Shown: piece after piece, positions 2,242 to 40,947 of the stretch
Layout of the letters: each line of letters opens with the position of its first letter
Numbering within the stretch: position 1 is the stretch's first letter
From: Candidatus Micrarchaeota archaeon
Lineage (GTDB): Archaea > Micrarchaeota > Micrarchaeia > Micrarchaeales > CABMGC01
DNA: 64,000 nucleotides
Assembly: GCA_021818925.1 (NCBI GenBank)
Contig: JAKASU010000001.1
Span: 441,568-505,567, forward strand
Reading direction: 5' to 3'
The notes under the pieces: generated by a model
Told to the model about the DNA's origin: nothing
The model's input: the letters and a program-made list of their open reading frames with translations, nothing else
Databases searched by the model: none
Program-made: the position numbers and the translations under genes

Positions 2242-4491
2242 ATGCAGGAGACTGTGACGATTGAGCAGCTCATCGCCGAGATCTTCACGCTGGGCAAGGA
2301 GAGCAGCGGGAGCGCGGAGATGTTCAGCAGATTCTCCAACAAGCTGAAGGAGGCGGTCGGCATAGACTATGTGATGATGAGCGACGCCTACCAGGAGAAG
2401 AGCGGGCTCTCGGGACTTGAGGAGTTCGCGATAAACACAGGCAAACCCTACGTTGACAACAGGCTCAGCGGCTACTCTGCCTTCCCCGAGCTGATAAAGC
2501 ACTACAACCTCGGATTCCGAAGCTGCATGCTTCTTCCGGTGGCCGTTGAGGGCAAGCCGGTAGTGGTCGCCACCTTCCTCTCAAGGCAGGAGGACAGGTT
2601 CGACCCGGCGCTCTCATCAAAGCTGACGCTCGCGACGGAGATGCTCGCTTATCTGTCGGTGGCGAAGACCGAGAGGGAGAGGAGCATGAGCCTTGCACAC
2701 TACTTCGACGCCGCGTTCAACACATACGCGCCGCAGATGCTCATCGACAAGAGCGGGGCGATAGTCAAGGCGAACAAGAGCTCGGCGGGGCTCTTCGGCA
2801 AGACGCAGAAGGAGATGGTAGGCAGGAACATCAGCGAGTTCTTCGGGATAGAAGCAAACGCTCTCTACGCTCTGCGCGACGGCTCGGCTACTGAGATAGG
2901 CGAGATCGGAGACCAGGGCAGGGTGTACAAGGCGACGTGCGGCAAGATAAACGACCGTCTGACGCACCTGCTCCTCTACGATGTGACCGAGCTGAAGGAG
3001 CTGGAGGAGAAGGTTAGGCTCGCGGAAAGGAGCGCTAGCGAGTCGCTGATGCTGCTCGCAAAGGACACGACGGTGCTGTGGGCGAGCGCCAACGTGGGCA
3101 AGGTGCTCAAGATAGACAGGGACGAGCTTGTGGGAAGGCGCCTGCTCGACCTCGCGTACGAGGACAAGGAGTTCGCGGGCGAGATAAGCTCGCTTTCGGA
3201 AACGCTCTCGAGGCCGCTGCGGCTCAACGTGGGCAACGACGTGATAATCGAGGCAAGGACGACGCTGATGAAGAACCGCTTTGGAGGCTTCTCGTGCGTG
3301 ATGAGGAGCAACAACGTGGAGAAGTACGTAGCCGCCATGCAGGGCGCGCTCGAGGGACTCGTTGAGGACGCGAGCGACGCCATATTCAGCGTTGATGCGC
3401 TCGGCTACATAAAGTCTGCGAACAGAAGCGCTGAGAAACTGCTAAACTACTCCAACAGCGAGCTGAGCGGCAGCTCGCTTGTCTCACTCTACGCGGACGA
3501 GGAGAGCCAGAAGAAGCTCAGCTCCTCGATGTCTCTCGCAAGGAGCAACGGTTCGGAGGAGAACGTCTACGTGAGCCTGAGGGCGAAGGGCGCCGACGAG
3601 CCGATACCCTGCAAGCAGACGATAAGGAGCATGGTGGACAGCGACAACAACCACGTGGGCTACATGGTGATAAGCGAGGAGCTCGCAACGAAGATAAAGA
3701 TGGGCGAGCTCGAGGAGAGCTACGAGAAGAAGGAGTCTGAGCTGAGGGGCGCGAAGGAGGAGAGCGAGTACAAGAGCCAGTTCTTCCAGAACATCTCTCA
3801 CGACCTTAAGACGCCGCTCACCAGCATCTACGGCTACGGCAAGATCCTGGCAAACAGCAGCGACGGGATAAGCGATGAGAACAAGGGATACGCGAATATC
3901 ATAACCAACGAGGCGGAAAGGCTCCTGCAGCTGATAAACCAGATACTCGATGTCGCGAAGCTCGAGTCGGGAAGGATAAAGCTCGATATGAAGGACGTGA
4001 ACTTCAATGAGCTGCTGAAGAACCCCGCGATAGAGTCGCTGGCTGAGTTCGCGGAGAAGAAGGGGCTCGAGTTCAAAAGAGAAGTGGAGTACAGCGTGCC
4101 TGCCGTTCCTGCTGACCCCAACAGGCTGATACAGGTGCTCGTCAACCTGATAGGCAACGCGATCAAGTTCACAGAGACAGGCAGCATAACAGTCAGGATC
4201 GCGAGGGCGGGGAAGACCAGCAAGTACGTGAAGGTGGAGGTGAAGGACACGGGCAGCGGCATAAGCAAGGAGGACAAGGGCAAGCTCTTCAGAAAGTTCT
4301 TCCAGATCCAGAGAAAGGGGCTTATCATGCAGGAGGGATCAGGAACCGGGCTCGGGCTCTCTATAGCGAAGGAGATTGTGGGCCTTCATGGCGGAACCAT
4401 CGGCGTTGAATCGGAGCTCGGGAAGGGAAGCACCTTCTGGTTCAAGCTGCCCATGACGGTGAAGGCGAAGAAGAGGGCGACGGAGAAGTGA
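2242..4491 (+). CDS. Soluble sensor histidine kinase (GAF-like N-terminus, several PAS-like segments, HisKA, HATPase_c)
   Basis: H-box SHDLKTPLTSIYGY, N-box GNAIKFT, G1 DTGSGI, G2 GSGTGLGLSIAKEIV. No TM helix seen. The ATG at 2242 lies about 30 nt downstream of ACTATTTAAATTT. The track start at 2212 is TTG. Confidence 0.9.
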   Translation: MQETVTIEQLIAEIFTLGKESSGSAEMFSRFSNKLKEAVGIDYVMMSDAYQEKSGLSGLEEFAINTGKPYVDNRLSGYSAFPELIKHYNLGFRSCMLLPVAVEGKPVVVATFLSRQEDRFDPALSSKLTLATEMLAYLSVAKTERERSMSLAHYFDAAFNTYAPQMLIDKSGAIVKANKSSAGLFGKTQKEMVGRNISEFFGIEANALYALRDGSATEIGEIGDQGRVYKATCGKINDRLTHLLLYDVTELKELEEKVRLAERSASESLMLLAKDTTVLWASANVGKVLKIDRDELVGRRLLDLAYEDKEFAGEISSLSETLSRPLRLNVGNDVIIEARTTLMKNRFGGFSCVMRSNNVEKYVAAMQGALEGLVEDASDAIFSVDALGYIKSANRSAEKLLNYSNSELSGSSLVSLYADEESQKKLSSSMSLARSNGSEENVYVSLRAKGADEPIPCKQTIRSMVDSDNNHVGYMVISEELATKIKMGELEESYEKKESELRGAKEESEYKSQFFQNISHDLKTPLTSIYGYGKILANSSDGISDENKGYANIITNEAERLLQLINQILDVAKLESGRIKLDMKDVNFNELLKNPAIESLAEFAEKKGLEFKREVEYSVPAVPADPNRLIQVLVNLIGNAIKFTETGSITVRIARAGKTSKYVKVEVKDTGSGISKEDKGKLFRKFFQIQRKGLIMQEGSGTGLGLSIAKEIVGLHGGTIGVESELGKGSTFWFKLPMTVKAKKRATEK

Positions 4492-5484
4492 TCAGGGAGA
4501 TATGTAGGCCCCGCAGTCGTTCGTTATCTTGCTCTGGAAAGAGTACGAGCTGTTAAGCGTAGTGTAGTTGAATCCTGTGTAGAGGCCGGTGTACGTTATG
4601 CTCGACAGGAAGTTTGCAGAGGTTGTGTTGATTATCGCGAGCACGGCCGGTCCGGTTATGTTCGCGTCTGGAGAGACTATCGAGTAGGTAAGAAGCACGT
4701 TTTTGTTCGCGGTGAGCAGGCTCTCGTTAACGGTGAGGTCCGTGGGCGTGTGCGCGCTTACGTTCTCGTACGAGACTGGGGCTGGAGGCGGTTTGCCATT
4801 ATACTGAATATACGTGGAGTTGTACGTGCTCGGAGTGCACGCCACATCCCTCTTGTAGAGCGCGGAGTAGCCGTTCAGCACCATTCCGGGGCCGGTCTTG
4901 TTCATCAGGGTGAGCGCCTTCTGATACAGCGACTGGGTCGCATTCTGCACTATCGTGGTTGTCGAGGCCGTGGATGTGGTGGAGATCGTGGAGATTGTGG
5001 AAAGCCCGCCACTGCCTATGCTGCTGAGGCTTGAAGGGTTGAGCAACACTACGCTCGAACTGGGCCTTATGTGCAAGGCTACAAAAAGCGGAGTTATCTC
5101 TACGGTGGCGCTGGAGTTGCTGCTCGAGATGAGCCTTATGTTCATGTCCGAGTCCGTGGAGCCGCCGGTGCTGACGTTGAGACTGGTCACAGGGGCGAGG
5201 GTGAATGCTACAACTGGATTGTAGAGGGCCGGCACGCTAGTTATGTAGAACGATGCGCCGCTTACCGATGCCGACCTGAGTTCAAGCGCAGCGGTGCTGC
5301 CGTTGTATATCTTTATGAACTGGGTCTGGTTGAGCGCCAGTGTAACGGTCCTGGTGGAGCTTATCGGTATGACGCTCGGAACGAGCACGCCGTATACTAT
5401 GTATATGGCTATGAGTGCAACTACCAGCGCAAGTATCTGCCTGCCGGATAGCCGCCAAGCCGGAAGGGTGAAACCTTTCTGCAT
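4492..5484 (-). CDS. Membrane-anchored, sequon-rich surface (glyco)protein
   Basis: N-terminal hydrophobic helix (ILALVVALIAIYIVYGVL), Ser/Thr linker STISTISTTSTASTTTIV, and 13 N-x-S/T sequons counted in 330 aa. Confidence 0.6.
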   Translation of the reverse strand: MQKGFTLPAWRLSGRQILALVVALIAIYIVYGVLVPSVIPISSTRTVTLALNQTQFIKIYNGSTAALELRSASVSGASFYITSVPALYNPVVAFTLAPVTSLNVSTGGSTDSDMNIRLISSSNSSATVEITPLFVALHIRPSSSVVLLNPSSLSSIGSGGLSTISTISTTSTASTTTIVQNATQSLYQKALTLMNKTGPGMVLNGYSALYKRDVACTPSTYNSTYIQYNGKPPPAPVSYENVSAHTPTDLTVNESLLTANKNVLLTYSIVSPDANITGPAVLAIINTTSANFLSSITYTGLYTGFNYTTLNSSYSFQSKITNDCGAYISP

Positions 5485-5551
5485 CAGTCATCAACCACTG
5501 GTCCTGAAATCGGTTTCTACAAGAAACAATATTATACTTTCGTTGCCCATT

Positions 5552-6775
5552 ATGCTTGTTGCGACCAGTGAAGACATGAAGGGCATAGAGGACGTTGAGT
5601 CCGACATCATGTCGCTCATCAACGACAAGCAGGAGGTTACTTACAACGAGCTCAAAGACTACGCCGGATCAATGGAGATAGACGGCGACACGCTCAAGCG
5701 CGCGCTCGCGGAGCTGGTGAAGGCCACGGCGATAGCCTCTAGGAGCAGCGGCGGCATACCCACATACTACATGCTTCAGGAGCCGCAGCACATCAAGCGC
5801 GTCTTCGTGGTCGAGGACGAGCAGAACATAAACAAGCTCATGGCGGTCTCGCTGGGCAAGGGCTACGACATAACCCAGCTCTACGACGGCAGGGAGGCGC
5901 TCGAGAAGATAAAGCTCCAGAAACCGGATCTCGTGATACTGGACCTTATGCTGCCCGGAACTGACGGCTTGGAGATATGCCAGACGATAAAGAGGGACCC
6001 GGCGCTGAGGGACATAACGGTAATAATAGTCAGCGCGATGGAGGCCAGCACGAACAGGTTCAAGGGCATAAAGTACGGCGCCGACTACTACGTGAAGAAG
6101 CCGTTCGACCCCGACGAACTCAGGAGTCTCGTCACGATATTCCTGAAGAAGAAGGGGAAGAAGTTCGATCCGCTCATAGACCTGCCCAACGAGGAGAGGA
6201 TATCGGACAGCGTGGAGAAATCGCTCAAATCAGATGACACGGATTATGAGATAGGCAGGCTCAGAGTAGAAGGGCTGGCGAGCTTCGCCGGCAAGTTCGG
6301 CAACGACGCAGGCATAACCATACTGCGCCTTGTCTCGCAGCTGCTGCAGGACAAGGTCAAGGCAAGGGAGATGGAGGGCACGTTCGTTGGTTTCCTCAAT
6401 GGGGACGACTTCGTGCTCGCAGGCAACAGGAAGAACGTCGACAGGATAATAGAGAGCATAAAGTCGGAATTCCACGCGGTGCTGCCGTTCATCTACCAGA
6501 ACGAGGGCTACAAGCCGATAGAGAAGGGCATAGACGACATCTATGCTGTTCGGAACCCGACGCTCGAGCTCGGTTACACTGAGATAAAACGCGAGGCGCT
6601 AATGGCGCGTCGCGCAGAGGTGATCAAGGAGAAGCGCAAGGAAGAGATCGGCTCGTACACCTACGATGAGCTGAGGCGCATGCTAGGGAGCGAGAACCTG
6701 GACATAACGATAACAAGGGACACTAATGGGGTGAAGCTCTCTGTTGGAAAGAGAGTGGAGAAAGAAGAGGATTAG
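5552..6775 (+). CDS. Response regulator: winged-helix N-terminus, REC receiver, GGDEF-like (NGDDF) output domain
   Basis: REC motifs VVEDE and LVILDLMLPGTDG ... KKPF. The C-terminal part parallels GGDEF domains (DPLIDLPNEE; FAGKFGNDAG; FVGFLNGDDFVLAG). The N-terminal 86 codons of the track ORF overlap the opposite-strand gene, so the start was moved to ATG 5552 (alternative 5576). Confidence 0.8.
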   Translation: MLVATSEDMKGIEDVESDIMSLINDKQEVTYNELKDYAGSMEIDGDTLKRALAELVKATAIASRSSGGIPTYYMLQEPQHIKRVFVVEDEQNINKLMAVSLGKGYDITQLYDGREALEKIKLQKPDLVILDLMLPGTDGLEICQTIKRDPALRDITVIIVSAMEASTNRFKGIKYGADYYVKKPFDPDELRSLVTIFLKKKGKKFDPLIDLPNEERISDSVEKSLKSDDTDYEIGRLRVEGLASFAGKFGNDAGITILRLVSQLLQDKVKAREMEGTFVGFLNGDDFVLAGNRKNVDRIIESIKSEFHAVLPFIYQNEGYKPIEKGIDDIYAVRNPTLELGYTEIKREALMARRAEVIKEKRKEEIGSYTYDELRRMLGSENLDITITRDTNGVKLSVGKRVEKEED

Positions 6776-7063
6776 CTACTTTCCGCGCTTCTTCTTCGCC
6801 GTTCCCTTCGAGCGCTTTGCCGATGCCTTCTTCTTTCTGGAGCGCTTGCTGCCCGAACCCAAGCTCGTCTCCGACCTCTTGAACCTCTCTGACTCCAGCA
6901 GGTCCGCCACATGCGTCTCGTCCGTCGGTCTGCTCTCGCCGGCGCTGTCGAGAAGCGCCTGGCTCTGCACGCCGCCTATCTTTAGAAGCTCGTTCATTCG
7001 CTGCGCCCTTAGGAGCGCCTCGAGCCTCTTGCTGCTTGACGACCTGCTAGGTTTCTTCGCCAT
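6776..7063 (-). CDS. Small lysine/serine-rich basic protein, unknown function
   Basis: 95-aa ORF with basic termini (MAKKPSRSSSSKR...KRSRKKKASAKRSKGTAKKKRGK). It abuts the response-regulator stop, forming a TAGCTA stop-stop palindrome. Confidence 0.4.
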   Translation of the reverse strand: MAKKPSRSSSSKRLEALLRAQRMNELLKIGGVQSQALLDSAGESRPTDETHVADLLESERFKRSETSLGSGSKRSRKKKASAKRSKGTAKKKRGK

Positions 7064-7314: not shown

Positions 7315-9978
7315 ATGATAGAATACTACAAGAAGCCGTTCAGCAGAGACGAGAGCCTGGGCTCGCTCAATTTCTACATACGTGACTGGTTCGAGAAGAG
7401 GTACAGGAACCCAACTCCGCCGCAGCTCTACTCATTCAAGCTGATCAGGGAGAAGAGGAACCTGCTCATAACGGCGCCAACGGGCAGCGGCAAGACGTTC
7501 TCCGCATTCATGGCCATACTGAGCGACCTGATGGACATAGCCGAAGCCGGCAAGCTTGAGGACAAGATATACTGCGTCTACATCTCCCCGCTCCGCGCGC
7601 TCAACAACGACATATACAGGAACCTGAACGAGCCGCTTGACGAGATATACAAGAAGCTTGGCGGGAGCGTCAAGCGCATAAGCGTGGCGATACGCACAGG
7701 CGACACGCCGCAGGCTGAGAGGCAGCGAATGCTGCGCAAGCCGCCGAACATACTCGTCACTACGCCGGAGAGCCTGGCGATACTGCTCAACGCGCAGAAG
7801 TTCTCTGAGAACCTTAAGAGCGTCAGGTACGTGGTCATAGACGAGATACACGAGCTTGCGAACAACAAGCGCGGGGTGCACCTCTCGCTCTCACTGGAGA
7901 GGCTGGCTGATCTTGTCGGCTCTGATTTCACGCGCGTGGGACTGGGTGCCACGCTACACCCGCTCGAGACTGCTGCGGGCTTCCTCGTGGGATACGGCGA
8001 CGACGGGAAGGAGAGGGACTGCTACATAATAGATGCGACATGGGACAAGAAGATGGACTACCAGACCATGTGCCCGGTCAGCGACATAGTGAACGCGAGC
8101 GACGACAAGATAGACGAGTCTATCTACAAGACGCTCAACAGCATAATCAAGAAGAACAGGACGACGCTGATATTCACCAACACGAGGAGCGGCACGGAAC
8201 GTGTCGTGTACAACCTAATGAAGCGGTTCAAGTACGGCGAGGAGCACGTGGCGGCGCACCACGGGTCGCTCTCGAGAGAGTCGAGGCTTGACGTGGAGGA
8301 GATGCTGAAGAGGGGCAAGCTCAAGTGCGTGGTTTCGTCGACGAGCCTGGAGCTCGGGATAGACATAGGCAGCATAGACGACGTGGTGCAGCTCGGGTCA
8401 CCGAAGAGCGTGACCAGGGCGATACAGCGGATAGGGAGGAGCGGACACAGGTTCTCCGACGTTGCGAAGGGCGAGATAGTGGCGATAAACCGCGACGACC
8501 TGGTCGAGTGCGCGGTGATGCTCGATTCCGCGAAGAAGCGGAAGCTTGACTCGTTCACAATACCGCGCAACGCGCTTGACGTGCTTGCCCAGCACATAGT
8601 GGGCATGGCGCTCATGAAGAAGTGGAAGATCGATGATGCGTTCGCGCTCGTCAGGAGGGCGTACTCCTACCACGCGCTGGACAAGAAGGACTTCATGATG
8701 CTCATCGAGTACCTGTCGGGAAGCTACGTGGGGCTCGAGAGCAGGCGGGTCTACGCGAAGATCTGGTACGATGCGAACGAGGGCGCGATCGGGAGGAGGG
8801 GCAGGCTTACCAGGCTTATCTACTTCCTCAACATCGGCACCATACCCGACGAGGTCTCGGTCAACGTGTACGGAGAGAAGAACAAGTGGATAGGAAGCAT
8901 ACAGGAGGAGTTCCTGTCGAGGCTGAAGCCGGGAGACATCTTCGTGCTAGGCGGCAGGCTGTACAGGTTCGACCACAGCAGGGAGATGAAGGCTTTCGTT
9001 ACGCGCGCTGATACTAAGATACCGACCATACCGCCGTGGTTCTCCGAGCAGCTTCCGCTCACCTATGAGCTGGCGCTGGAGATAGGAAGATTCAGGCACG
9101 ATCTTGCCGATGCGATAGGCAAGGAGCTGAGAGAGACAAAGGGGATAACGGCGCTGCTGAAGAATAGGAAGTTTACTGGAGGAAAGACGACGCAGGAGAT
9201 GCTTGACGCGATGCCGATGGACAAGAACACGAAGAGTTCGATCATCTCGTACTTCGCAGAGCAGCTGCTCTTCGCCAAGCATGTGCCCAACGACAAGCTC
9301 ATACTAATAGAGAAGACGAATGACGAGAAGGGCGAGCGCAACTACCTAGTCTTCCACAGCCTGTACGGCAGGCGCTTGAATGACGCGCTCTCGCGCCTGT
9401 TCGCGATAGAGGCGAGCGACCTCTTCGAGACCGACGTGGGCATGATGATAAACGACAACGGCTTCGTGCTCGTCACCGATTCGTCGCTGAAGATAAGCAA
9501 GGAGGACATCTCCAGGCTGGTGGCGAACGTAGCGTCAAGCGACGCCACGCGGATAATAAGGGCCAACGTGAGGCGCACGGAGATGATGAAGCGAAGGTTC
9601 AGGCACGCCGCGGTGCGCAGCTTCATGGTGCTCCGCAACTACAAGGGCAGGCAGATAAGCGTGAAGAGGCAGCAGATCAACTCGGAGCTGGTGATGAGAG
9701 CAGCCGAGGAGATAAGCCCCGACTTTCCCGTGCTCAAGGAGACGTACAGGGAGATAATGGAGGACGTGATGGACCTGCCGCGCGCGAAGGAGATACTGAA
9801 GAAGCTAAAGGATGGCGAGATTGCCTATCAGATAATAGAGACGCAGGTCCCTTCGCCGTTCTCACACGTCATGGTAACCTTTGGCGAGGCAGACGTAGTC
9901 ATGATGAAGGACAGGCGTAGGCACCTGCGCGAGCTGCACAAACACGTGATGCAGCAGATAAGCAAGAGGTACGGATGA
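7315..9978 (+). CDS. lhr: Lhr-family DEAD/DEAH-box ATP-dependent helicase
   Basis: Motif I APTGSGKTF, motif II VVIDEIHEL, motif VI QRIGRSGH, plus a long C-terminal Lhr-type extension. 887 aa. Confidence 0.85.
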   Translation: MIEYYKKPFSRDESLGSLNFYIRDWFEKRYRNPTPPQLYSFKLIREKRNLLITAPTGSGKTFSAFMAILSDLMDIAEAGKLEDKIYCVYISPLRALNNDIYRNLNEPLDEIYKKLGGSVKRISVAIRTGDTPQAERQRMLRKPPNILVTTPESLAILLNAQKFSENLKSVRYVVIDEIHELANNKRGVHLSLSLERLADLVGSDFTRVGLGATLHPLETAAGFLVGYGDDGKERDCYIIDATWDKKMDYQTMCPVSDIVNASDDKIDESIYKTLNSIIKKNRTTLIFTNTRSGTERVVYNLMKRFKYGEEHVAAHHGSLSRESRLDVEEMLKRGKLKCVVSSTSLELGIDIGSIDDVVQLGSPKSVTRAIQRIGRSGHRFSDVAKGEIVAINRDDLVECAVMLDSAKKRKLDSFTIPRNALDVLAQHIVGMALMKKWKIDDAFALVRRAYSYHALDKKDFMMLIEYLSGSYVGLESRRVYAKIWYDANEGAIGRRGRLTRLIYFLNIGTIPDEVSVNVYGEKNKWIGSIQEEFLSRLKPGDIFVLGGRLYRFDHSREMKAFVTRADTKIPTIPPWFSEQLPLTYELALEIGRFRHDLADAIGKELRETKGITALLKNRKFTGGKTTQEMLDAMPMDKNTKSSIISYFAEQLLFAKHVPNDKLILIEKTNDEKGERNYLVFHSLYGRRLNDALSRLFAIEASDLFETDVGMMINDNGFVLVTDSSLKISKEDISRLVANVASSDATRIIRANVRRTEMMKRRFRHAAVRSFMVLRNYKGRQISVKRQQINSELVMRAAEEISPDFPVLKETYREIMEDVMDLPRAKEILKKLKDGEIAYQIIETQVPSPFSHVMVTFGEADVVMMKDRRRHLRELHKHVMQQISKRYG

Positions 9979-10724
9979 TGAGGCTTACCGGAGACGTAGA
10001 GCTTGCAGAAGGCCTGCCGCTCCTCTACATAAAATCGCTCGACACAATCGTGTGTTCGGACCTCCATCTCGGATACGAGGGTGTGATGGCCAGCCGCGGG
10101 AGCTTCGTGCCAAAACTCAACTTCAGGAAGATAAAGGAGATGATGATGAAGGCTTCGAAGGCCTTCGGCGCGAAGACCGTGATTGTTGTAGGCGACATAA
10201 AGAACGAATTCGCGGACGTGCATGTGGAGGAGTTCAACGAGTTCCGCGAGTTCATAGGCTTCCTTAGGAAGGAGCTTGGGATAGGAAGAATAATACTCAT
10301 CAAGGGAAATCATGACAACTTCATAGACAGGTTCAGGCAGGCGCTCGGGTTCGAGATATTTGCGCAGGAGACGCTGCTCGGCGACTACCTTTTCTTCCAT
10401 GGTGAGGAACTGCCGAAAGGCAAGGGCGGTAAGACTTTGGTGATGGGCCACCTTCATCCTGCGATAGCGGTGTATAACAAGGTTGGAGTGAAGGAGAAGA
10501 TTAAATGCTTCCTTTACGGGCAGATAGATGACGGAAGAAATATAGTAATCCTGCCTGCCATGAACTATTTTGCAGAAGGTGTGGACGTGAACCAGGAGCA
10601 CCTCGAGAAAATGGCACCGATCTTCGACAGCATGCTCGACGTGGACGAAATGAAGGCGCTCTGCCTGGGCGAGGACGAGATACTCGACTTCGGCAAGGTG
10701 GGAAAGCTCAGGAAATTGCGGTGA
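9975..10724 (+). CDS. Metallophosphoesterase (Lhr-associated MPE/PdeM-like)
   Basis: Calcineurin-like motifs CSDLHLGYE, VVGDIKNEF, IKGNHDN and GHLHP. The start overlaps the lhr stop by 4 nt. Confidence 0.8.
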   Translation: MMRLTGDVELAEGLPLLYIKSLDTIVCSDLHLGYEGVMASRGSFVPKLNFRKIKEMMMKASKAFGAKTVIVVGDIKNEFADVHVEEFNEFREFIGFLRKELGIGRIILIKGNHDNFIDRFRQALGFEIFAQETLLGDYLFFHGEELPKGKGGKTLVMGHLHPAIAVYNKVGVKEKIKCFLYGQIDDGRNIVILPAMNYFAEGVDVNQEHLEKMAPIFDSMLDVDEMKALCLGEDEILDFGKVGKLRKLR

Positions 10725-12577: not shown

Positions 12578-14062
12578 GTGAAAATCATGGCAAGTGGCAA
12601 GGGCAAATCACCGGTCAACACACCTCCGCCTGAGGCGAAGGAGGTCTATGATCAGGCGGGCAAGCTCTTCGAGGAGAACAAGTTCGACGAAGCGATAGCG
12701 CTGTATTCACAGGCGATAGACAAGTATCCGGAGTACTCAAGCGCCTACTTCAACCGCGCGCTATCTTACGCGCTCCAAAGCCAGTATGAGAAGGCTACAA
12801 ACGACGCGATGAAGGTCATGGACCTCGAGCCGAACGCGCCCGACGCCCCATACGTGATGGGCGTCATAAGCGAGTACCAGAACGACCTCCCGGGCGCGCA
12901 GGAATGGTACGAGAAGTCGCTGAAGAACAATCCCAATTACACTCAGGCGAAGGACAGGCTGAAGATGCTGAAGGAGAAGATGAAGGGCGAGAAGCCCGGA
13001 GGCAGGCTGAAGACGGCGGAGGGCGCCGATGGCACGCAGACCGTTGTTGAGGAGGGCCAGATAAAGAAGGTGGCGTGGTTCACCTCAGACATGACATTCA
13101 AGGACGTCATAGGGATGGAGAAGCAGAAGCAGATAATACACGACAACATAGTGCTCGCGATAACGAAGCCCGAGCTCTTGAGGGCGTACGGAAAGAAGCT
13201 GGGCCTCGGTGCCATATTCTACGGCCCCCCTGGAACCGGAAAGACGTATCTGGTGAGGGCCATATCAGGGGAGACCAAGGCCAAGTTCATAATAATGCAC
13301 ATAAACGAGATCGTGGACATGTACGCAGGCAACACGGAGAAGAACCTGCACGCGATATTCGAGCAGGCGAGGAAGAACGCGCCGTGCATAGTCTTCGCCG
13401 ACGAGATCGACGCGCTCGGAAGCAAGAGGGAGGGCGAGCAGCAGGGCAACATGCGAATGGCCGTGAACCAGTTCCTGCAGGAGCTGGACGGTGTGGAGAA
13501 GAACCCTGAGGGCATATTCGTGATAGGGGCCACGAACCAGCCGTGGGACATGGACCCCGCACTGAAGCGACCCGGAAGGTTCGGAGAGTCGATATACCTG
13601 CCGGCGCCGAAGTACAGGGACAGGAGGGACATGTTCCGGTACAACACGAGGAAGATGCCGCTCTCGAAGTTCATAAGCTTCGGAAGGCTCGCCAGGGCCA
13701 CGTGGGGCTTCTCCGGAGCAGATATATTCGACATCTGCGACAAGGCTGCGCTGAAGGTCGCGGCCGAGGAGGACAGGACCGGTAGGAAGAGGACTATAGG
13801 CATGAAGGACTTCATGGCCATAATCAAGGCTTCGGGCAGCTCGCTCGACGAGTGGTACGGGATGGTGAAGAAGGACGTGATAAGCAAGACCGAGACTCAG
13901 ATAGTTGAAGGGAAGAAGCAGGAGATAGTCAAGGAAGGCAGGCTGAGCCCGGAGGAGAAGCAGAAGTACAAGCCGATGATAAAGGACATAAAGAAGAACC
14001 TGAACCCGGTGAACGTGTTCGTCAAGAAGTTCATGAGGTTCTGGGCGATCTACCTGTTCTGA
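12578..14062 (+). CDS. AAA+ ATPase with N-terminal TPR repeats and hydrophobic C-terminal tail
   Basis: Three TPR-like repeats (aa about 20-125). Walker A GPPGTGKT, Walker B IVFADEIDAL, second region of homology ATNQPWDMDPALKRPGRF, and tail FMRFWAIYLF. Confidence 0.85.
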   Translation: MKIMASGKGKSPVNTPPPEAKEVYDQAGKLFEENKFDEAIALYSQAIDKYPEYSSAYFNRALSYALQSQYEKATNDAMKVMDLEPNAPDAPYVMGVISEYQNDLPGAQEWYEKSLKNNPNYTQAKDRLKMLKEKMKGEKPGGRLKTAEGADGTQTVVEEGQIKKVAWFTSDMTFKDVIGMEKQKQIIHDNIVLAITKPELLRAYGKKLGLGAIFYGPPGTGKTYLVRAISGETKAKFIIMHINEIVDMYAGNTEKNLHAIFEQARKNAPCIVFADEIDALGSKREGEQQGNMRMAVNQFLQELDGVEKNPEGIFVIGATNQPWDMDPALKRPGRFGESIYLPAPKYRDRRDMFRYNTRKMPLSKFISFGRLARATWGFSGADIFDICDKAALKVAAEEDRTGRKRTIGMKDFMAIIKASGSSLDEWYGMVKKDVISKTETQIVEGKKQEIVKEGRLSPEEKQKYKPMIKDIKKNLNPVNVFVKKFMRFWAIYLF

Positions 14063-14076
14063 AGCAGAATGCTAGC

Positions 14077-14406
14077 CTAATCTTCGTTCTCTTCGCCTTC
14101 GGTTTCCTGCGCCGCAAGCTCAACGTCTACGATCGCCTCCATCACGCCCCTGCGCGATTCCTCGAGCACCTCTCTCTTGACAGACTCCGGGATCTGCTGG
14201 TCCCTTACCCTTACCAGAAACATCAGGTGCTTTATGGCCGTTATATCGGCGAGCTCGGAGTCATATTTTGAAAGGTCGGGCTCATTCTCCTGCAAGTTAA
14301 CCGCAGCTAGCGCGGTGTAGAGCGTGGTCTCGTACGCTCTGTCGTGGGCTTCCTTCTTCAAGAGCTTCGCGTCGCCTTCAGCGAACTTATCGGGTGTTTT
14401 TTGCAT
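14077..14406 (-). CDS. Hypothetical acidic protein
   Basis: Track ORF 14077..14502 was shortened to ATG 14406 (MQKTPDKF...) because its upstream part overlaps a better small ORF. Confidence 0.45.
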   Translation of the reverse strand: MQKTPDKFAEGDAKLLKKEAHDRAYETTLYTALAAVNLQENEPDLSKYDSELADITAIKHLMFLVRVRDQQIPESVKREVLEESRRGVMEAIVDVELAAQETEGEENED

Positions 14407-14498
14407 CCCAATCCTGAGCAGCTCTTCAGGCCGTAAATAAAAAGGTTTTGTGCAGCGTAAGTCAGACGCAGTGCACCGTTGCCATCTTACAGCAGGGA

Positions 14499-14651
14499 TC
14501 ATTTGGGTCGCAGGGGCACATTCCTGTCAAAAAATAGTCTCCATCCGGTGCCCATCTTGTTTATGCAATCGATGCATATCCCCTCCAGCACCTCCTCCTC
14601 GGAGGTGAGTTTCGCAGGGCAGAAAATGCACGTGAGCTCGCTTTCAGCCAT
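14499..14651 (-). CDS. Small zinc-ribbon protein (50 aa), not in the ORF track
   Basis: Hand translation: MAESELTCIFCPAKLTSEEEVLEGICIDCINKMGTGWRLFFDRNVPLRPK*, with CxxC...CxxC. Confidence 0.4.
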   Translation of the reverse strand: MAESELTCIFCPAKLTSEEEVLEGICIDCINKMGTGWRLFFDRNVPLRPK

Positions 14652-14754
14652 CTTGAACGGCATGCGACCAATGAGGTTGCAGATTCCGCGTTTATATTCT
14701 TTGGCTTAGATTCCAGAGAATGCTAACGCCGGGAGTCTGGCGCCAAACGCAATG

Positions 14755-15219
14755 TTAAAGCTTTTTAGTCAACAGTATTTTGGTTTCGTGGGGTCTGATA
14801 TTCATGCTACTTCTTCTAAATCCAAAGTTCTCATAGAACGCAGCCGCCCGCTCTTCCGATGTCCATACAAAGATCATGCGGTGTTTGCGCTTCCGAGCTT
14901 CGTTTATGCACCATTTTACCGCCTTCGTTCCTAAACCCATGTGCTGGTACTCGGGGGCAATGGCAAGCCAGTCAATTCCAATGGCGTTGGTAGGATGTGT
15001 ATCAAAGCGGTACAGGCCAAATATCCCAACCTGCTTGTTCTTACAGATTATGATCTTCATATCGGCAAGCACGTACGGCCGCCTATCGTGTCCCAAGATC
15101 AATGAAAAAGAGCGATTGGCTTTCTTCGCCCATCTGGCGCCCAGGGTTCTCCTAATAATCAGTAAGGAGGCGGCTTTGTCCTTTGCCGTAAGCTTTCTTA
15201 CCGAAACCCTTAATTTCAC
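14755..15219 (-). CDS. GNAT-family N-acetyltransferase
   Basis: Acetyl-CoA binding core LAIAPEYQHMGLGTKAV and FYENFGF. Confidence 0.8.
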   Translation of the reverse strand: MKLRVSVRKLTAKDKAASLLIIRRTLGARWAKKANRSFSLILGHDRRPYVLADMKIIICKNKQVGIFGLYRFDTHPTNAIGIDWLAIAPEYQHMGLGTKAVKWCINEARKRKHRMIFVWTSEERAAAFYENFGFRRSSMNIRPHETKILLTKKL

Positions 15220-15270
15220 TCGATCAGAGCAGGCTTCTCGATAAGCCTAACTAAAATGCACGTTATTGAA

Positions 15271-15342
15271 GGCCTATGCCGGGAGTCGGACCCGGTCCTT
15301 AGGATCCACAGTCCTATATGCAGCCGTTACACCACAAAGGCC
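15271..15342 (-). tRNA. tRNA-His (GTG) with encoded G-1
   Basis: Hand fold: G-1 plus acceptor GCCTTTG/CATAGGC (one T-T mismatch) and discriminator C. Anticodon arm TAGGA-CTGTGGA-TCCTA. T arm CCGGG-TCCGACT-CCCGG. The D stem is weak and the T-loop is atypical (TCC). Confidence 0.6.
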
Positions 15343-15399
15343 ATGCTCTTTTTATATGCAAAACTCAGTATTTATAGATAAGCGTAGTAAACAAGGCAT

Positions 15400-15522
15400 G
15401 GCGGGGTAGCTCAGCCTGGTTAGAGCGCTAGACTCATATGCCAAGCATTATGAGTGGCGAGCACTTGTTGCGATGAGCGCTAAGAAATCTAGAGGTCGAG
15501 GGTTCGAATCACTCCCCCGCCA
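15400..15522 (+). tRNA. tRNA-Met/Ile2 (CAT anticodon) with a 48-nt intron after position 37
   Basis: Acceptor GGCGGGG/CCCCGCC, D arm GCTC-AGCCTGGTTA-GAGC, and anticodon stem CTAGA/TCTAG with CAT at 15435-15437. Intron at 15439-15486; its TATGAGT pairs with exon ACTCATA. T arm GAGGG-TTCGAAT-CACTC (one mismatch). CCA is not encoded. Confidence 0.8.
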
Positions 15523-15570
15523 AAACAGTAATATTGTAGTGATTTAAGCTTTAGGCGTACAAAGCATGAT

Positions 15571-16344
15571 ATGAGATTAGTATCGCTTAATTTATGGGGA
15601 GGAAGGGCGTATAATAAGTTAACCGAGTTTGTTGAAAGCGAAAAATTGCGCACCGATATATTTTGCTTTCAGGAGGTCCTTGACCTAAAGACCGGAGACA
15701 TAGACCCGGAGGTAAAAGCCGCAATCGAGGAATATCAAAAAAGCGGACGCAAACAAGAACTTAACTTATATTCAAGTCTAAGAGACCTGCTGACTGGTTT
15801 TGAAAGCTTCTTGTCTGAGCCTTATTCTCAAGGAGCAGAGAGGCTGGCAATTTTTGCCAGGAAAGAGTTAAAGGCACAAGTAGAAGTTCTTAAAGTACAC
15901 AGAAAAATTGATGTGATTCTTCATGATAAGCCATTTTGGGTCAGTTGCATAATGCAGCACGCCCAAATTAAAAGAGGCACGCTGTCTTACGACATAGCTC
16001 AGTTACACGGCCTTTGGCAAGGTGGAGGGAAAGCGGATACGCCTGAGAGATTAGAACAGTCTAAAACAATTAACAAACTGATGTCGAAGTTCGGTGAGAG
16101 GAAAGTACTTTGCGGTGACTTTAACCTTGATATAAACACAGAAAGCGTAAGAATGCTTGAAGACTCAATGACTGATTTGATTAGGACACACCGCATAACC
16201 ACAACACGAAGCACTCTAGCTCCTGCCAGGAAAGGAAAAATCGCTGATTATGTCTTTGTCTCTGATAAAATCAAGGTAAATGACTTTGAATTACCAGAAA
16301 CAGAAGCTTCAGACCATCTGCCTTTGTGTTTAGACTTCGAGTAG
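15571..16344 (+). CDS. Endonuclease/exonuclease/phosphatase (EEP) family protein
   Basis: SLNLWGG, FCFQEV, CGDFNL and EASDHLPL motifs. The DNA is AT-rich. Confidence 0.8.
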   Translation: MRLVSLNLWGGRAYNKLTEFVESEKLRTDIFCFQEVLDLKTGDIDPEVKAAIEEYQKSGRKQELNLYSSLRDLLTGFESFLSEPYSQGAERLAIFARKELKAQVEVLKVHRKIDVILHDKPFWVSCIMQHAQIKRGTLSYDIAQLHGLWQGGGKADTPERLEQSKTINKLMSKFGERKVLCGDFNLDINTESVRMLEDSMTDLIRTHRITTTRSTLAPARKGKIADYVFVSDKIKVNDFELPETEASDHLPLCLDFE

Positions 16345-16477
16345 AGCATGCTGGTTGCAGGCTTAGGACCCTGACGCCCACGGCCCTCCCCCGCCAAACC
16401 GACGACAAATCAACGACAGAATTGAGTAGCTTCGGGTAGCCCTTCGTTTCTTATACCTTAATCTCAACAATGTCAAT

Positions 16478-17179
16478 ATGGTGAGCGTTGATTTTAGGTT
16501 CAACTTAAAGGGCGATATAGACAACTGGTGGGACGCCTGCAATTCATCATTTATGGGAAATGATTGGAAAATGTGGATACGCCCAGACTTGAGAGAAAAA
16601 ATTGTGGGAGTTAGGAAGGACAAGGCTGAGCGCTTCCTGAGACCTTACCTTGAGGGAGTGTATAAACGCGAAGGAAAACATGTTCTGAAGATGATTGGCG
16701 TTTCTAAACGCTACTGGGATGAGAATGAGACTGAGATTTATAGCAGATTGAGTAAGATAACAAAGAAACCCATATGGCCGCCGATCATTCATTGTTATTA
16801 TACAACATTTCCGAGATGCCCTTATGGCTTCAAGAAGAATGAAGGCTGGTTATACATCAACAAAAAATTTGCCAAAAATAAGAAAGAATATGCAGGAACG
16901 GTTCTCCACGAGCTCATGCACTTCCAGTTTCATAAGTATTTCTGGGGCTACTGCAAAAAGCATGGTCTAAGTGATGCACAAATAAATCACTTGAAAGAAG
17001 CTTTTACGTTTTTGATAAATGAAGAGTTCTCTGATATTGTTTCCAGAGACAACGGTTATCGCATTCATAAGATGTTGAGGAAAGATTTGAGCAAAATTTG
17101 GAAAAAAAGCAATAACTTCAGAATTACTTTGGATGGTGGAATATTACTGATGAAAAGAAAATACCACAATCTCGATTAG
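16478..17179 (+). CDS. Hypothetical protein with HExxH metalloprotease-like motif
   Basis: VLHELMHFQFH in a 233-aa Lys/Trp-rich ORF. AT-rich DNA. Confidence 0.55.
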   Translation: MVSVDFRFNLKGDIDNWWDACNSSFMGNDWKMWIRPDLREKIVGVRKDKAERFLRPYLEGVYKREGKHVLKMIGVSKRYWDENETEIYSRLSKITKKPIWPPIIHCYYTTFPRCPYGFKKNEGWLYINKKFAKNKKEYAGTVLHELMHFQFHKYFWGYCKKHGLSDAQINHLKEAFTFLINEEFSDIVSRDNGYRIHKMLRKDLSKIWKKSNNFRITLDGGILLMKRKYHNLD

Positions 17180-17312
17180 AGAAACTGCAAAACCCTATAT
17201 CGCTCGCTATTGAAGAATATATGAAAGCCATCTTACCTTAGGTGCGCTGACCTCCCGCCAGACAAACGGTGCGTAAGTGTTAAATATCTGCTTGCGGATA
17301 ATAGTATTAGCT

Positions 17313-17396
17313 CGCCGGGTGTGGGAATCAAACCCACCAAGGTTGTTGGCCAGTCGTTTTTCAGAAGACACCGCTTTCATAGCGGTTTAACCCGGC
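17313..17396 (-). tRNA. Aberrant 84-nt tRNA-like element (type II/Ser-like scaffold with GAA anticodon position); possible pseudogene
   Basis: Perfect 7-bp acceptor GCCGGGT/ACCCGGC with discriminator G. T arm GTGGG-TTTGATT-CCCAC. Anticodon arm GTCTT-CTGAAAA-ACGAC (one T-C mismatch). 15-nt variable region. No canonical D stem and no GG in the D loop. Confidence 0.35.
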
Positions 17397-17405
17397 TTTG
17401 AGCGG

Positions 17406-17570
17406 CTATCTGATTTTAATCAGTGTCAAGACCGATGCCTGGATGATCTGCGCGCTTCTCGCATACGCTGCAGATATCCACGAGACGTAGTTTACCTCGC
17501 TCATCAGCGCGAGCAGGTAGAACGAGATGAAGAGCACGGTCAGGACCAGCACAAGGCCGTAGAACGACAT
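17406..17570 (-). CDS. Small hydrophobic protein (54 aa), last gene of the pilin-like operon
   Basis: MSFYGLVLVLTVLFISFYLLALM... The ATG at 17570 lies 4 nt after the stop of the upstream gene. The track ORF starts further upstream, inside that gene. Confidence 0.4.
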   Translation of the reverse strand: MSFYGLVLVLTVLFISFYLLALMSEVNYVSWISAAYARSAQIIQASVLTLIKIR

Positions 17571-17574
17571 GATA

Positions 17575-17946
17575 TCACGCGAACGAGACGCACACCTCGG
17601 CCGTGGAGTTTGTGCCCGCAAGGGGCACGCTCGAGCATGCCGCGCCGCCCTGGCCCACCTCTATGCTTATGCTGCCGATTCCGAATATGACGCTGAGGTT
17701 CTGCTCGATACCCGCCATGCACCCTGACTGCCCGCCGTCATAGAGCTGCAATACGCAGGTGTTGTACGTTGAGTTGCGCTCGAGCGCGTTGAAGATGTCG
17801 TAGGCCGCAATGCTCCTCTGGAGCGACGTTGACTGCGAGGCGAGGTTGGCTGTAGACGAGTTTACAAGCGAAGAGGCGAAGCCAACTGCAGATACCACCA
17901 GCGCGAGCGCTATTCCTGCCTCGACCGTTGCGAACTGCGCCTTCAT
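17575..17946 (-). CDS. Type IV pilin-like protein (class III signal peptide)
   Basis: N-terminus MKAQFATVEAGIALALVVSAVGFA. Located 1 nt from the upstream gene. Confidence 0.7.
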   Translation of the reverse strand: MKAQFATVEAGIALALVVSAVGFASSLVNSSTANLASQSTSLQRSIAAYDIFNALERNSTYNTCVLQLYDGGQSGCMAGIEQNLSVIFGIGSISIEVGQGGAACSSVPLAGTNSTAEVCVSFA

Positions 17947-17947
17947 G

Positions 17948-18922
17948 CTAGCTCCTCACGTTTATCACGCTGCCCAGGTAGTAGAAGGTCTGGTTCTGCA
18001 CTCCGGCACCGGGAGAGAGCGTCACGTTTATGAGGTACAGGAAGGGCGAGGCGGCGGCGCACGTGTAGCTGTTGCCCACCACGGCGCACTGCGGGACCTG
18101 GGCGCTGCCGCTCACGAGATGCAGCTGGGCGCTTGAGAACGCGCCTATCGACTGCTCTATGATCTCCTGCGTGGATGAATCGACGCCTGTGTTGTTGTAG
18201 AAAGCGAGCATAGGATAGAGCACGCTCTTCTGCTGCGAATATGCGGAAAGGTACGTCTGGTTCGCAACGCTGTAGTTGGCAAGGTACTGCAACAACGAGA
18301 TGCTGGGCTCCGCGTCTGTGCTGCTCACGCTTGAAACGCTGGCGCTGCCCACCTCATTGCCGCTGAGCACCACCGGCGAGCTGCCGCGCACGCTGCTTAT
18401 CTGGGACATCATCCGCCCGGCAGGAGAGCCTATCACAAGCGTGAAGTTGTATGAGTATGAGCGCGAGCCGTTGAGCCGGTCCACCGCGTAGCCCGTGTCA
18501 TGGGGAATTATGCAGTACGCGCCTGTGCTCGCGCAGTCGTAGCCTGCTATGTAGTCCCATGCGTTGCTCGTGCCGCACTGCCCCTGGACGCCGAACCTGT
18601 TGCCGTAGAACCCGTGGTAGGTGCAGTGGCTGAACTGCGTCAGGTTCGTCACATACTCTGGCGGGCTGAGGCCGTAGCCGACGGACTCGCTGGCGTTAGT
18701 TATGTAAGCGTAAGAAGCCGCGTACGCTGTTGTCGTGGCGGGTGAGTAGTTGAATAGGAAGAAGGGCTCGGGATACGAGAGGTTTGCTGGCATCCTTGCG
18801 GCTGATGCGAGCGCCGATGCCTGCGAGAAGAGGTTCCTGGAGTAGAAGCCGACCAGGAAGAGGGCCATTGCCGCGACCGCGCTCCCTATCAGCATGAACT
18901 CGAGGCTAGCCTGCGCTCTCAT
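17948..18922 (-). CDS. Large type IV pilin-like / pilus-associated glycoprotein
   Basis: N-terminus MRAQASLEFMLIGSAVAAMALFLVGF. 11 N-x-S/T sequons and several Cys pairs. Confidence 0.75.
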   Translation of the reverse strand: MRAQASLEFMLIGSAVAAMALFLVGFYSRNLFSQASALASAARMPANLSYPEPFFLFNYSPATTTAYAASYAYITNASESVGYGLSPPEYVTNLTQFSHCTYHGFYGNRFGVQGQCGTSNAWDYIAGYDCASTGAYCIIPHDTGYAVDRLNGSRSYSYNFTLVIGSPAGRMMSQISSVRGSSPVVLSGNEVGSASVSSVSSTDAEPSISLLQYLANYSVANQTYLSAYSQQKSVLYPMLAFYNNTGVDSSTQEIIEQSIGAFSSAQLHLVSGSAQVPQCAVVGNSYTCAAASPFLYLINVTLSPGAGVQNQTFYYLGSVINVRS

Positions 18923-32363: not shown

Positions 32364-32826
32364 GCTATCCTTTGAGAACTAGCTGGGTTTTAACTTGTAA
32401 GTAAACAGACTTATTCTTTTACTTTCTCGCCTTTTGACGAGCCGTTGAACTTCGACTGAATAAAGCCTCGTCAATACCGCCTCCAAAATGGAAGAACCTG
32501 CAACCTTAAGGAGCGACTCTCGGTTTCGTAGCTTCTTTATGATGGAGCAGGCAGAAATCGTGGCCAAGTTCGCCAGAATTGACGAGAACGACAGGCAGAG
32601 TCGTATAGGCCGAAGCTCACTTGCCATCCGCCGACTATCTCAGACTCCCGGGGTTTGAGAAAAGCCTTGGATGGCATTTTTCTCGGTTCGCCGAGGCTGG
32701 CTGGGTTCTCTTTTCACAGCTTCTCGTCAGCCTTTCGTCTTCAGCCATTCCTCTCGTCCGCCAAGTATGCACGTTCAGTGCCCAGTACTAGACAACTGTT
32801 TAAGTGTGGAACTGATACTGCAAGAA

Positions 32827-33084
32827 TCAGCGCTCGTTTTTCAATATCCGTTCCATGTCTTTATAGCAATCTTCGCACTCCCAGTATTCGATAGGCACGG
32901 ATTCTGATTTTGCGAAGTCTGGTTGCTCAAGCTTGAGGATTGATGCTGCCGCCTCGTAGTTAACGTTGAACTTGCCGAAGAAGCTCCAACTTTTGTCCGC
33001 GATCTTTTCGCCCTTTCCGACCGCCACCTCTCCCTCTTTTCCGCATATAGCGCAAGCAACCTTGTGCGTCGCCTTCTTTCCCAA
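32827..33084 (-). CDS. Small Cys-containing protein
   Basis: 85-aa ORF with CAICG...CEDC. Confidence 0.5.
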   Translation of the reverse strand: MGKKATHKVACAICGKEGEVAVGKGEKIADKSWSFFGKFNVNYEAAASILKLEQPDFAKSESVPIEYWECEDCYKDMERILKNER

Positions 33085-33125
33085 ACTACCACTCCTGCCC
33101 GCTCTGATTGTGACTCTGCGCCTTT

Positions 33126-33530
33126 TTATTTATTTCTTTTAAAGTCGAACTCCAGTATCTTGTCTGGCAGCATGAAGAATCTTGATTTTTTGAGCCTTAT
33201 CGCCGATTCGTCCTTGTACAAGTGCTTGGAGTGAGCGTTCAACAGCGAGAGGAGCTCCTCCTCATCGCGTAGTTCTTTGAAACCCTCGCAAGAATGCGCA
33301 GCAAAATAGTTGTATGCCTCAAGGCTGAAAGCGAACTCGTTCTCTTTTTTGGTACTCTCGGACATGATCCAGTCCGGATTGTGCTGCTCCGTAGCTATCC
33401 TGACAGCCCACTCCCTGAACTGTCGCATTGCTACAAGGAAGTCGTCATCTACTTCCCCGCGGACCACCATTTCCTCATGCCATGCACAGATATTAGAATG
33501 GAAAGGAATAAACACCGTGGCTGTGGTCAC
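33126..33530 (-). CDS. Hypothetical protein
   Basis: 134-aa ORF with no motif. Confidence 0.45.
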   Translation of the reverse strand: MTTATVFIPFHSNICAWHEEMVVRGEVDDDFLVAMRQFREWAVRIATEQHNPDWIMSESTKKENEFAFSLEAYNYFAAHSCEGFKELRDEEELLSLLNAHSKHLYKDESAIRLKKSRFFMLPDKILEFDFKRNK

Positions 33531-33561
33531 GTCTACATTAGTAAATGCGCCATATTTTGTG

Positions 33562-34455: not shown

Positions 34456-34520
34456 TGGAAAATGTTTACCAAAAAAGCCATAATCAGAACCAAGTTCGCC
34501 CTTGGGAACTTAGGTTATCT

Positions 34521-35528: not shown

Positions 35529-35597
35529 ACGCTACTATATCAGCTAAGATATATATGCTTTACACTATACGAAAAAATTGTAAATAAAATTGAGTTT

Positions 35598-37520: not shown

Positions 37521-37582
37521 CACAGTAAAACTTTCACGAATATATAAATAGACACCAGCGCATTTAGGAGAAGGCCGGGGGG

Positions 37583-40926: not shown

Positions 40927-40947
40927 TCGTTACAGTTTGGGGATAAA

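Follow-up and report, generated by a model that had tools for sequence, protein, structure and literature searches.

A winged helix–receiver regulator of Micrarchaeota with a predicted inactivated GGDEF domain

The regulator gene and its domains

We analyzed a stretch of 64,000 nucleotides from a Candidatus Micrarchaeota archaeon (assembly GCA_021818925.1, contig JAKASU010000001.1, positions 441,568 to 505,567 of the forward strand; hereafter the window, or 64-kb window). Near its left end lie a histidine kinase gene, a divergent gene for a Ser/Thr-rich protein, and a response-regulator gene, which is the subject of this work (Table 1). The regulator has a winged helix-turn-helix at the N terminus, a receiver (REC) domain in the middle and a C-terminal part resembling the GGDEF domain of bacterial diguanylate cyclases. 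An earlier note, made from the letters of the sequence, had proposed this layout, and all three parts were found by Pfam, family profiles and AlphaFold. As detailed below, the C-terminal part appears to descend from bacterial GGDEF domains and to have lost the residues needed for catalysis.

On the forward strand, the mechanically open frame spans 5294-6775, and the ATG at 5552, used as the start in the earlier note, gives 407 amino acids. The frame and its end at 6775 stand; its true start is most likely 5576, eight codons after 5552, because homologues from other assemblies all open with MKGIED, which corresponds to 5576, and because a conserved TATA-like element, AATATTATA (5528-5536), and a Shine-Dalgarno-like element, GCGACCAGTG (5561-5570), are located upstream of it. 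Please note that residue numbers are counted from the ATG at 5552 throughout, i.e., 8 has to be subtracted for the revised start. Briefly, the locus was scanned for in one genome per prokaryotic species, which yielded 120 loci, 80 of them kept; a word-indexed homologue search, in which the family is under-represented, returned only 30 proteins. The scan was seeded with alignment A2, since alignment A1 was too gappy, and profile A2 covers the last ~200 residues of 19 family members. Column counts are over 80 full-length sequences, i.e., the window protein and 79 orthologues.

The receiver scores 91.9 bits with Pfam PF00072 (cut-off 30.2, E = 3.6e-26), and all five of its catalytic residues, E88, D89, D131, S161 and K183, are invariant (80/80). 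Judged by this alignment, the phospho-chemistry residues are intact and the receiver is live. Its best NCBIfam matches are PhoB, RpaB, YycF and MtrA (E about 1e-28 to 1e-25), all scores being far under the family cut-offs (at most 98 against at least 270), and a PDB sequence search matches the receiver alone, with the PleD receiver among the best. The protein thus resembles OmpR/PhoB-family regulators in its receiver and in having a winged helix, whereas that family carries a C-terminal Trans_reg_C domain and the window protein an N-terminal winged helix of MarR/ArsR/CodY type. In NCBIfam, Trans_reg_C and an equivalog score are absent and the receiver alone matches, so that the protein does not belong to the OmpR/PhoB family.

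For the N-terminal 70 residues, AlphaFold predicts three helices in a row followed by a beta-hairpin. Profile A3 of the family matches winged helices, CodY at 2.6e-4 and also TFE, ArsR and MecI (E = 2.6e-4 to 3e-3), and individual family members match MarR_2 (1.2e-6), TrmB (6.2e-6) and Penicillinase_R; the assignment of this domain as a winged helix is supported by these matches. Between helix 5 of the receiver and the GGDEF-like domain runs a basic linker, KKKGKK, with columns of K80/K77/G80/K73 of 80, in a region predicted as disordered (pLDDT, the predicted local distance difference test, <50 for residues 200-211). The motif is kept more strongly than a passive linker would require.

Table 1. 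Coordinates of the regulator gene, its parts and the neighboring features in the window.
Feature	Position	Strand	Basis
Response-regulator gene, revised start (399 aa)	5576..6775, stop codon included	+	homologue starts, upstream elements, translation
N-terminal winged helix-turn-helix	5576..5785	+	AlphaFold (AF2) topology, profile matches, charge statistics
Receiver (REC), residues 84-194	5801..6133	+	PF00072
REC catalytic residues: acidic pair E88/D89, phospho-acceptor D131, S161, K183	5942-5944 (D131)	+	alignment of 80
Near-invariant basic linker KKKGKK, REC helix 5 to GGDEF-like domain	6146..6163	+	column counts, pLDDT
Degenerate GGDEF (palm) core, alpha0-beta1-alpha1-alpha2-beta2-beta3-alpha3	6167..6514	+	hhalign, profile and Foldseek matches
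beta1 'RVEG', remnant of DxDxF	6263..6274	+	R238 at the D327 position, E240 at the D329 position
NGDDF, remnant of the GG(D/E)EF hairpin	6398..6412	+	core-clade column counts
Divergent C-terminal half: predicted beta4-alpha4, extra helix, beta-hairpin	6515..6772	+	AlphaFold (AF2) secondary structure
Partner histidine kinase, PAS-HisKA-HATPase, H-box SHDLKTP near 3799	2242..4491, open from 2212	+	Pfam
Ser/Thr-rich (27%) 330-aa protein gene, divergent	4492..5484	-	composition, hydropathy
AT-rich TATA-like element AACAATATTATACTTTCG	5525..5542	.	91-bp divergent intergenic region, ~45 nt from both starts

Ancestry and decay of the GGDEF-like domain

The relationship of the C-terminal domain to GGDEF domains emerges from profiles of the whole family. 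Compared by hhalign, the archaeal family and a bacterial clade reading 'GHIGGDDF' match with 99.3% probability (E = 3.8e-20, 114 columns), and a hidden Markov model of that clade matches the open reading frame in the window at 1.8e-21. When profile A2 was compared with PDB sequences, only two matches had E<0.01, and both are GGDEF domains (6eib, 1.5e-3; DosC, 4zve, 6.5e-3). A HMMER search with A2 of 1.84 billion representative proteins gave 632 matches at E<=1e-3, of which ~23 are the family itself and the remainder cover profile positions 1-112; Pfam GGDEF was found on 9/9 sampled matches outside the family core, and PF00990 proteins were retrieved at E = 1e-13 to 1e-6. In the alignments DPLIDLPNE corresponds to NPLTxLPGN, RVEGLASFAGKFGNDAGI to DxDxFKxYNDxYGxxxGD, and FVGFLNGDDF to FVGHIGGDDF. 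The earlier note had matched the GGDEF landmarks to the protein in one particular register; the 6eib and 4zve alignments fall into the same register, as do the profile alignments, and the hhalign value places the agreement far beyond chance.

The structural models point in the same direction. AlphaFold gave a full-length model with a pLDDT of 72.5 and a model of the domain alone with a pLDDT of 77.7 and a predicted template modeling score (pTM) of 0.73; the order of elements in both is alpha0-beta1-alpha1-alpha2-beta2-beta3-alpha3-beta4-alpha4, after which come an extra helix and a hairpin. In Foldseek, WspR, PleD and DgcR lead the matches of the full-length model (about 1e-12), while all of the first 31 PDB matches of the domain-only model, and nearly all of its top 50, are GGDEF domains. 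Structure prediction, which the earlier note had proposed as a check, thus returns a palm/GGDEF fold for the C-terminal domain. On profile and model evidence, we regard this domain as truly homologous to the GGDEF domains of bacterial diguanylate cyclases. Its C-terminal half is strongly conserved within the family, including IGSYTY(D/E)ELR...LDITITRD.

In PleD, the functional residues of the GGDEF domain are D327, K332, N335, D344, E370, K442 and R446 (PMC6629876), with D327 and E370 holding the two Mg ions (PMC7696173). We read the equivalent positions from the A2/PDB and hhalign alignments. On beta1, D327 is replaced by R238 (R55, K19 of 80) and D329 by E240 (E35, D32); K332 has become A243 (A71), N335 A246 (A75), D344 I255 (I60) and R366 F281 (F80). 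Within the hairpin, G368 corresponds to N283 (N59, D20), G369 to G284 (G41, S28, A11), E370 to D285 (D71, E7) and E371 to D286 (D78), and the final F of NGDDF is invariant (F80/80). Of the two metal ligands of diguanylate cyclases, D327 is therefore lost and the position of E370 is kept as D285. The claim that the first metal-ligand Asp reads Glu has to be corrected, i.e., this position reads R238, and E240 stands at the second Asp of DxD (D329); that the motif is degenerate is borne out by NGDDF and by the replaced PleD residues in the 80-sequence columns. The signature GG(D/E)EF reads NGDDF in the window protein and is variable or absent in its relatives, and an RxxD I-site was not found, with no R/D at -9/-6 and an alpha2-beta2 loop that is variable and gapped over the 80 sequences. 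Judging from these positions, the C-terminal domain is a non-catalytic, inactivated GGDEF, as the earlier note had allowed for in naming a non-catalytic domain as one alternative, since residues of both catalysis and GTP binding are replaced.

At the hairpin, members farther removed that share the three-domain architecture have NSDVF, NTTEF, DSEVF, NSDAF, GEGEF, GESSF and GDSFF, so that the acidic hairpin is not a family-wide requirement; the most divergent members retain DxE or ExE on beta1. This bears on the possibility that the protein, though divergent, works as a nucleotide cyclase or nucleotidyltransferase through a shifted metal site made of E240 and D285/D286. GSU1937 shows that a GGDDF motif can be catalytically active (PMC8835794), the closest relatives of the family have intact GGDDF sites, and the core clade retains xxDDF and E/D240. 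However, exchanging one Gly of the motif for Ala abolishes the activity of GSU1937 (PMC8835794), and in the archaeal family D327 is R/K, K332 A, N335 A, D344 I, R366 F and G368 N/D. Since the distant orthologues of the same architecture lack the motif, catalysis is not the conserved function. A divergent cyclase, as suggested earlier, is thus very improbable in view of the replacements, which affect the first metal ligand, K332, R366, the first Gly and both residues that bind guanine.

The nearest relatives are bacterial and group into one coherent clade, marked by NPLTxLPGN, DxDxFKxYNDxYGFxxGD and FVGHIGGDDF and fused to REC, HAMP, CBS or EAL; the Chloroflexota response regulator NOZ06155.1 is one cluster member of it. 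These closest sequence relatives (represented by P0057, P0058 and P0073, and often fused to REC) share with the archaeal family the xPLxxLP start, the FVG(H/F)(I/L)xGDDF hairpin and the Fxx(V/L)P.FY..E(D/G) tail of alpha3. In contrast to the archaeal family, they keep DxDxFKxYND and GD and pass the Pfam and TIGR00254 thresholds for GGDEF; they also have a DRxG...FP...SIS insertion, a C-terminal half that cannot be aligned with that of the archaeal family, and no winged helix. Nothing specific on this clade was found in the literature. The landmarks of this large bacterial clade of GGDEF domains (P0049-P0088) are non-canonical: they read NPLTxLPGN rather than DxLTGLxNR, have His at the position of R366 and GGDDF rather than GGDEF, and carry a conserved Y..ED...GYI...DR.G....FP..SIS insertion. 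Another protein, P0054 (318 aa, from a Logan assembly), is shorter and K/N-rich with an apparently similar layout and a more eroded motif, AHVEENKF; it has a Pfam REC match, a marginal GGDEF match and first ~70 residues that look helix-turn-helix-like by eye, and it may point to related regulators beyond the core Micrarchaeota family.

It had also been suggested that NGDDF is closer to the GGDD of Cas10 palms than to diguanylate cyclases, which would make the protein a Cas10-like palm protein tied to CRISPR/cyclic-oligoadenylate signaling. Apart from this resemblance, the bacterial relative P0057 weakly matches Cas10b (E = 7e-4). The window protein, however, has no PADLOC Cas10 match at E<=10, there is no Cas10 among its 50 best Foldseek matches, the landmarks NPLTxLPGN, DxDxFKxYND and GD are all of GGDEF type, and no cas or CARF genes are found among the neighbors examined by Pfam. 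The closest relatives with intact motifs are instead bacterial signaling GGDEF domains reading GGDDF. We consider a link to Cas10 extremely improbable and reject Cas10 identity on the PADLOC and fold-match results.

Among characterized proteins, the bacterial REC-GGDEF diguanylate cyclases WspR, PleD and DgcR are alike in having a phosphorylatable receiver followed by the GGDEF fold. They differ in that D327, K332, N335, D344, R366 and GG(D/E)EF are intact, usually with an RxxD I-site, all of which are lost in the window protein, and the latter is extended by a winged helix at its N terminus and by a divergent stretch at its C terminus. Degenerate-GGDEF effectors, i.e., PopA, PelD, SgmT and YdaK, reuse the GGDEF fold without cyclase activity in signaling and are in this respect similar; they bind cyclic di-GMP via a conserved RxxD I-site, whereas the archaeal family is without it.

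A conserved locus across Micrarchaeota

Nearly all of the 80 kept loci come from metagenome-assembled genomes of Micrarchaeota, a phylum which NCBI now names Microcaldota; the best is 88% identical. The recurring gene order is fibrillarin (-), kinase (+), Ser/Thr-rich protein (-), regulator (+), Lhr helicase (+) and metallophosphoesterase (+). Lhr is downstream in 50/80 loci, and many of the gaps in the order are contig ends; the distant member P0034 (GEGEF) adjoins a PAS protein. Genes of the archaeal core flank the regulator on both sides in the window. Judged by this synteny, the regulator gene is integral to the genomes of Micrarchaeota and inherited vertically.

The census of Galperin et al. 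(2018) reported that archaea essentially lack GGDEF/EAL response regulators (PMC5847659). It listed UNLARM2_0239 (ARMAN-2) as 'wHTH-REC-GGDEF' with the GGDEF inactivated, BK997_02000 (ARMAN-1) and JJ59_05330 (AZ1) as REC-GGDEF, and Mia14_0100 as 'wHTH-REC-bGlyc', with one response regulator and 0-2 kinases per Micrarchaeota genome and, in ARMAN-1, ARMAN-2 and Mia14, a kinase two locus tags ahead of the regulator (PMC5847659). The Micrarchaeum proteins UNLARM2_0239, BK997_02000 and JJ59_05330, which share the gene order with a kinase two tags upstream and are listed as one regulator per genome, are very probably orthologues of the window protein; in the Mia14 orthologue the C terminus was given a different label, 'bGlyc'. 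The novelty assumed in the earlier note therefore does not hold, since both the architecture and the inactivated state had been recorded for Micrarchaeum (PMC5847659); the protein is a member of an already catalogued family, and as degenerate GGDEF regulators are well known it is no new kind of system. That record is a one-line census entry, without residue analysis, ancestry or phylum-wide synteny (PMC5847659), and beyond it no later literature on Micrarchaeota two-component systems was found in the library searched.

The same census raised, and left open, the doubt that draft archaeal genomes are contaminated by bacterial-type regulators (PMC5847659). For a contaminating or mis-binned bacterial contig one could cite the domain type, which is bacterial, and the nearest intact relatives, which include a Chloroflexota protein. 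However, the scan found the 120 loci in species-representative genomes, the kept ones being nearly all Micrarchaeota, and archaeal core genes are present on both sides of the gene within the window. Contamination is excluded because most of the 80 loci have the gene in the same order, flanked by the archaeal fibrillarin and Lhr genes; being refuted by synteny, it is left with next to no likelihood.

The PAS-HisKA-HATPase kinase gene is conserved upstream of the regulator, two genes away, in 63/80 loci, in agreement with the pairing of the two genes suggested before. There is just one marginal hydrophobic window and no clear transmembrane segment in the kinase, which is therefore probably cytoplasmic. 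A scan of the window shows one REC and one kinase core, which make up the only two-component pair found in it, and the domain scan detected no further GGDEF or EAL there.

In 62/80 loci the Ser/Thr-rich gene separates the kinase gene from the regulator gene. Its product, which Pfam does not match, carries 13 NxS/T sequons and a single transmembrane segment at the N terminus; by composition it is a probable surface glycoprotein, and possibly a target or partner of the two-component system. The 18-mer AACAATATTATACTTTCG in the intergenic region is unique within the window, and its position is conserved across loci. Because this TATA-like element lies ~45 nt from both divergent starts, it suggests one bidirectional promoter for the regulator and the glycoprotein gene. 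A form AAAG-N8-14-CTTT is found at about -43 to -57 in 22/78 loci, with 0.018 expected; this symmetry may reflect a bidirectional promoter, i.e., a TATA box flanked by two transcription factor B recognition elements (BRE-TATA-BRE), or an operator, the two being indistinguishable. A sigma-70/terminator scan is not applicable to archaea and was uninformative.

Some further observations concern the surroundings of the regulator. Downstream, at 7315-10724, an Lhr-type helicase gene (DEAD, WH_Lhr, DEAD_assoc) and an overlapping metallophosphoesterase gene form a pair that is kept downstream in ~40-50/80 loci. A 95-aa Lys/Arg/Ser-rich open reading frame at 6776-7063 on the reverse strand is convergent with the regulator and abuts its stop codon; it is found in the closest relatives alone (8/80 loci), has no Pfam match, and may not be a real gene. 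Farther away, two stretches, 14000-18000 and 32000-42000, have a lower G+C content (0.47-0.50 against about 0.56 elsewhere in the window) and may be acquired islands. A tRNA-His gene is located at 15270-15342, and the genes in 32000-42000 encode a Fic-domain protein, two NUDIX hydrolases, a nucleotidyltransferase, an EamA transporter, a proline dehydrogenase and an AsnC-type helix-turn-helix protein.

A likely mode of action and what weighs against it

We consider it likely that the protein is a phospho-switched regulator of the winged helix-REC-GGDEF type, which uses its inactive cyclase domain as a scaffold or dimerization module. The kinase would use its PAS region to sense a cue in the cytoplasm and would phosphorylate D131, and the OmpR/PhoB-like receiver would then switch its conformation or dimerize. 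Output would go through the winged helix, probably by binding to DNA, both at the divergent promoter shared with the glycoprotein gene and at other sites, or alternatively by binding to protein. The inactive GGDEF domain would make no cyclic di-GMP and would be kept for dimerization or as a scaffold, possibly with ligand binding; a role of this kind is proposed because GGDEF domains pair naturally. As for the origin, an ancestral bacterial REC-GGDDF gene may have been acquired, fused to a winged helix and inactivated step by step.

Several observations weigh against parts of this interpretation. First, the net charge of the winged helix is -5 in the window protein (median -5, range -9 to -1 over the 80), and the residues of the recognition helix differ between orthologues; an acidic winged helix with a variable recognition helix is atypical of a DNA-binding head, which tempers the reading as a transcription factor. 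No inverted repeat was found in 5440-5620 and no operator in the intergenic search. Second, the homology to GGDEF is not visible to standard models, i.e., PF00990 does not match the window protein even at E<=10, and among the 25 best NCBIfam matches listed, all on the REC region, there is no TIGR00254. Family profiles are needed to see it, because plain Pfam and NCBIfam scans give REC only, and the GGDEF profile search that the earlier note had recommended is thus negative with plain Pfam and significant with the family profiles. The domain-only Foldseek values are modest (E 3e-4 to 1e-2, the first 31 reaching 7e-3; template modeling scores, TM, of 0.45-0.57), and the last ~85 residues alone show no sequence similarity to the bacterial clade (E = 0.54). 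Third, the active site may not be lost entirely. The C-terminal half, where K442 and R446 would be expected from PleD, cannot be aligned by sequence; it has conserved K359, K361 and R354, which may or may not be equivalent to them. The core clade keeps E/D240 (67/80), D285 (71/80) and D286 (78/80), so that a residual metal or nucleotide site is possible.

This last point leads to the possibility that the degenerate GGDEF domain is a ligand receptor, for a nucleoside triphosphate (NTP), (p)ppGpp or a cyclic di-/oligonucleotide, possibly host-derived, whose signal would be integrated with phosphorylation. Degenerate GGDEF receptors are an established class in bacteria. Conservation is strong despite the lost catalysis, with LRLVSQLLQD, FVGFL, EFxAVxPFIYQxEGYKP and IGSYTYxELR near-invariant over the 80 sequences, the acidic trio is kept in the core clade, and the predicted alpha4 region carries R353/R354, K359 and K361, which are basic and conserved. 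However, an RxxD motif with the spacing of an I-site, five residues ahead of the GGDEF position, is missing, the alpha2-beta2 loop being variable and gapped; Ala and Ile have taken the places of N335 and D344, which bind guanine, the acidic pair is gone in distant family members, the window has no further GGDEF or EAL gene, and archaea are reported to be almost without GGDEF/EAL regulators (PMC5847659). We thus regard a ligand receptor as unlikely. In a bolder version, the lone signaling pathway of an obligate episymbiont would have put a bacterial cyclase palm to a new use: E/D240, D285 and D286, together with the basic residues close by, would make up a novel site for ligand binding or residual catalysis, and the regulator would integrate a nucleotide or host-derived cue with phosphorylation to control the surface glycoprotein gene, hence host attachment; we give this little credence.

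GGDEF signaling is regarded as essentially bacterial, and archaeal regulators rarely carry bacterial outputs; the family in the window is an exception. It is genuinely archaeal, conserved throughout a whole DPANN phylum, and apparently the sole response regulator kept in these reduced genomes. To what was on record we add the phylum-wide synteny, with which the contamination doubt of 2018 is removed, the bacterial GGDDF sister clade, and a residue-level map of the inactivation. If the phospho-switched regulator with an inactive cyclase domain is the correct reading, attention shifts to roles of this domain in scaffolding, dimerization or ligand sensing, and the probable surface glycoprotein encoded next to it becomes a candidate target in the interaction of Micrarchaeota with their hosts.

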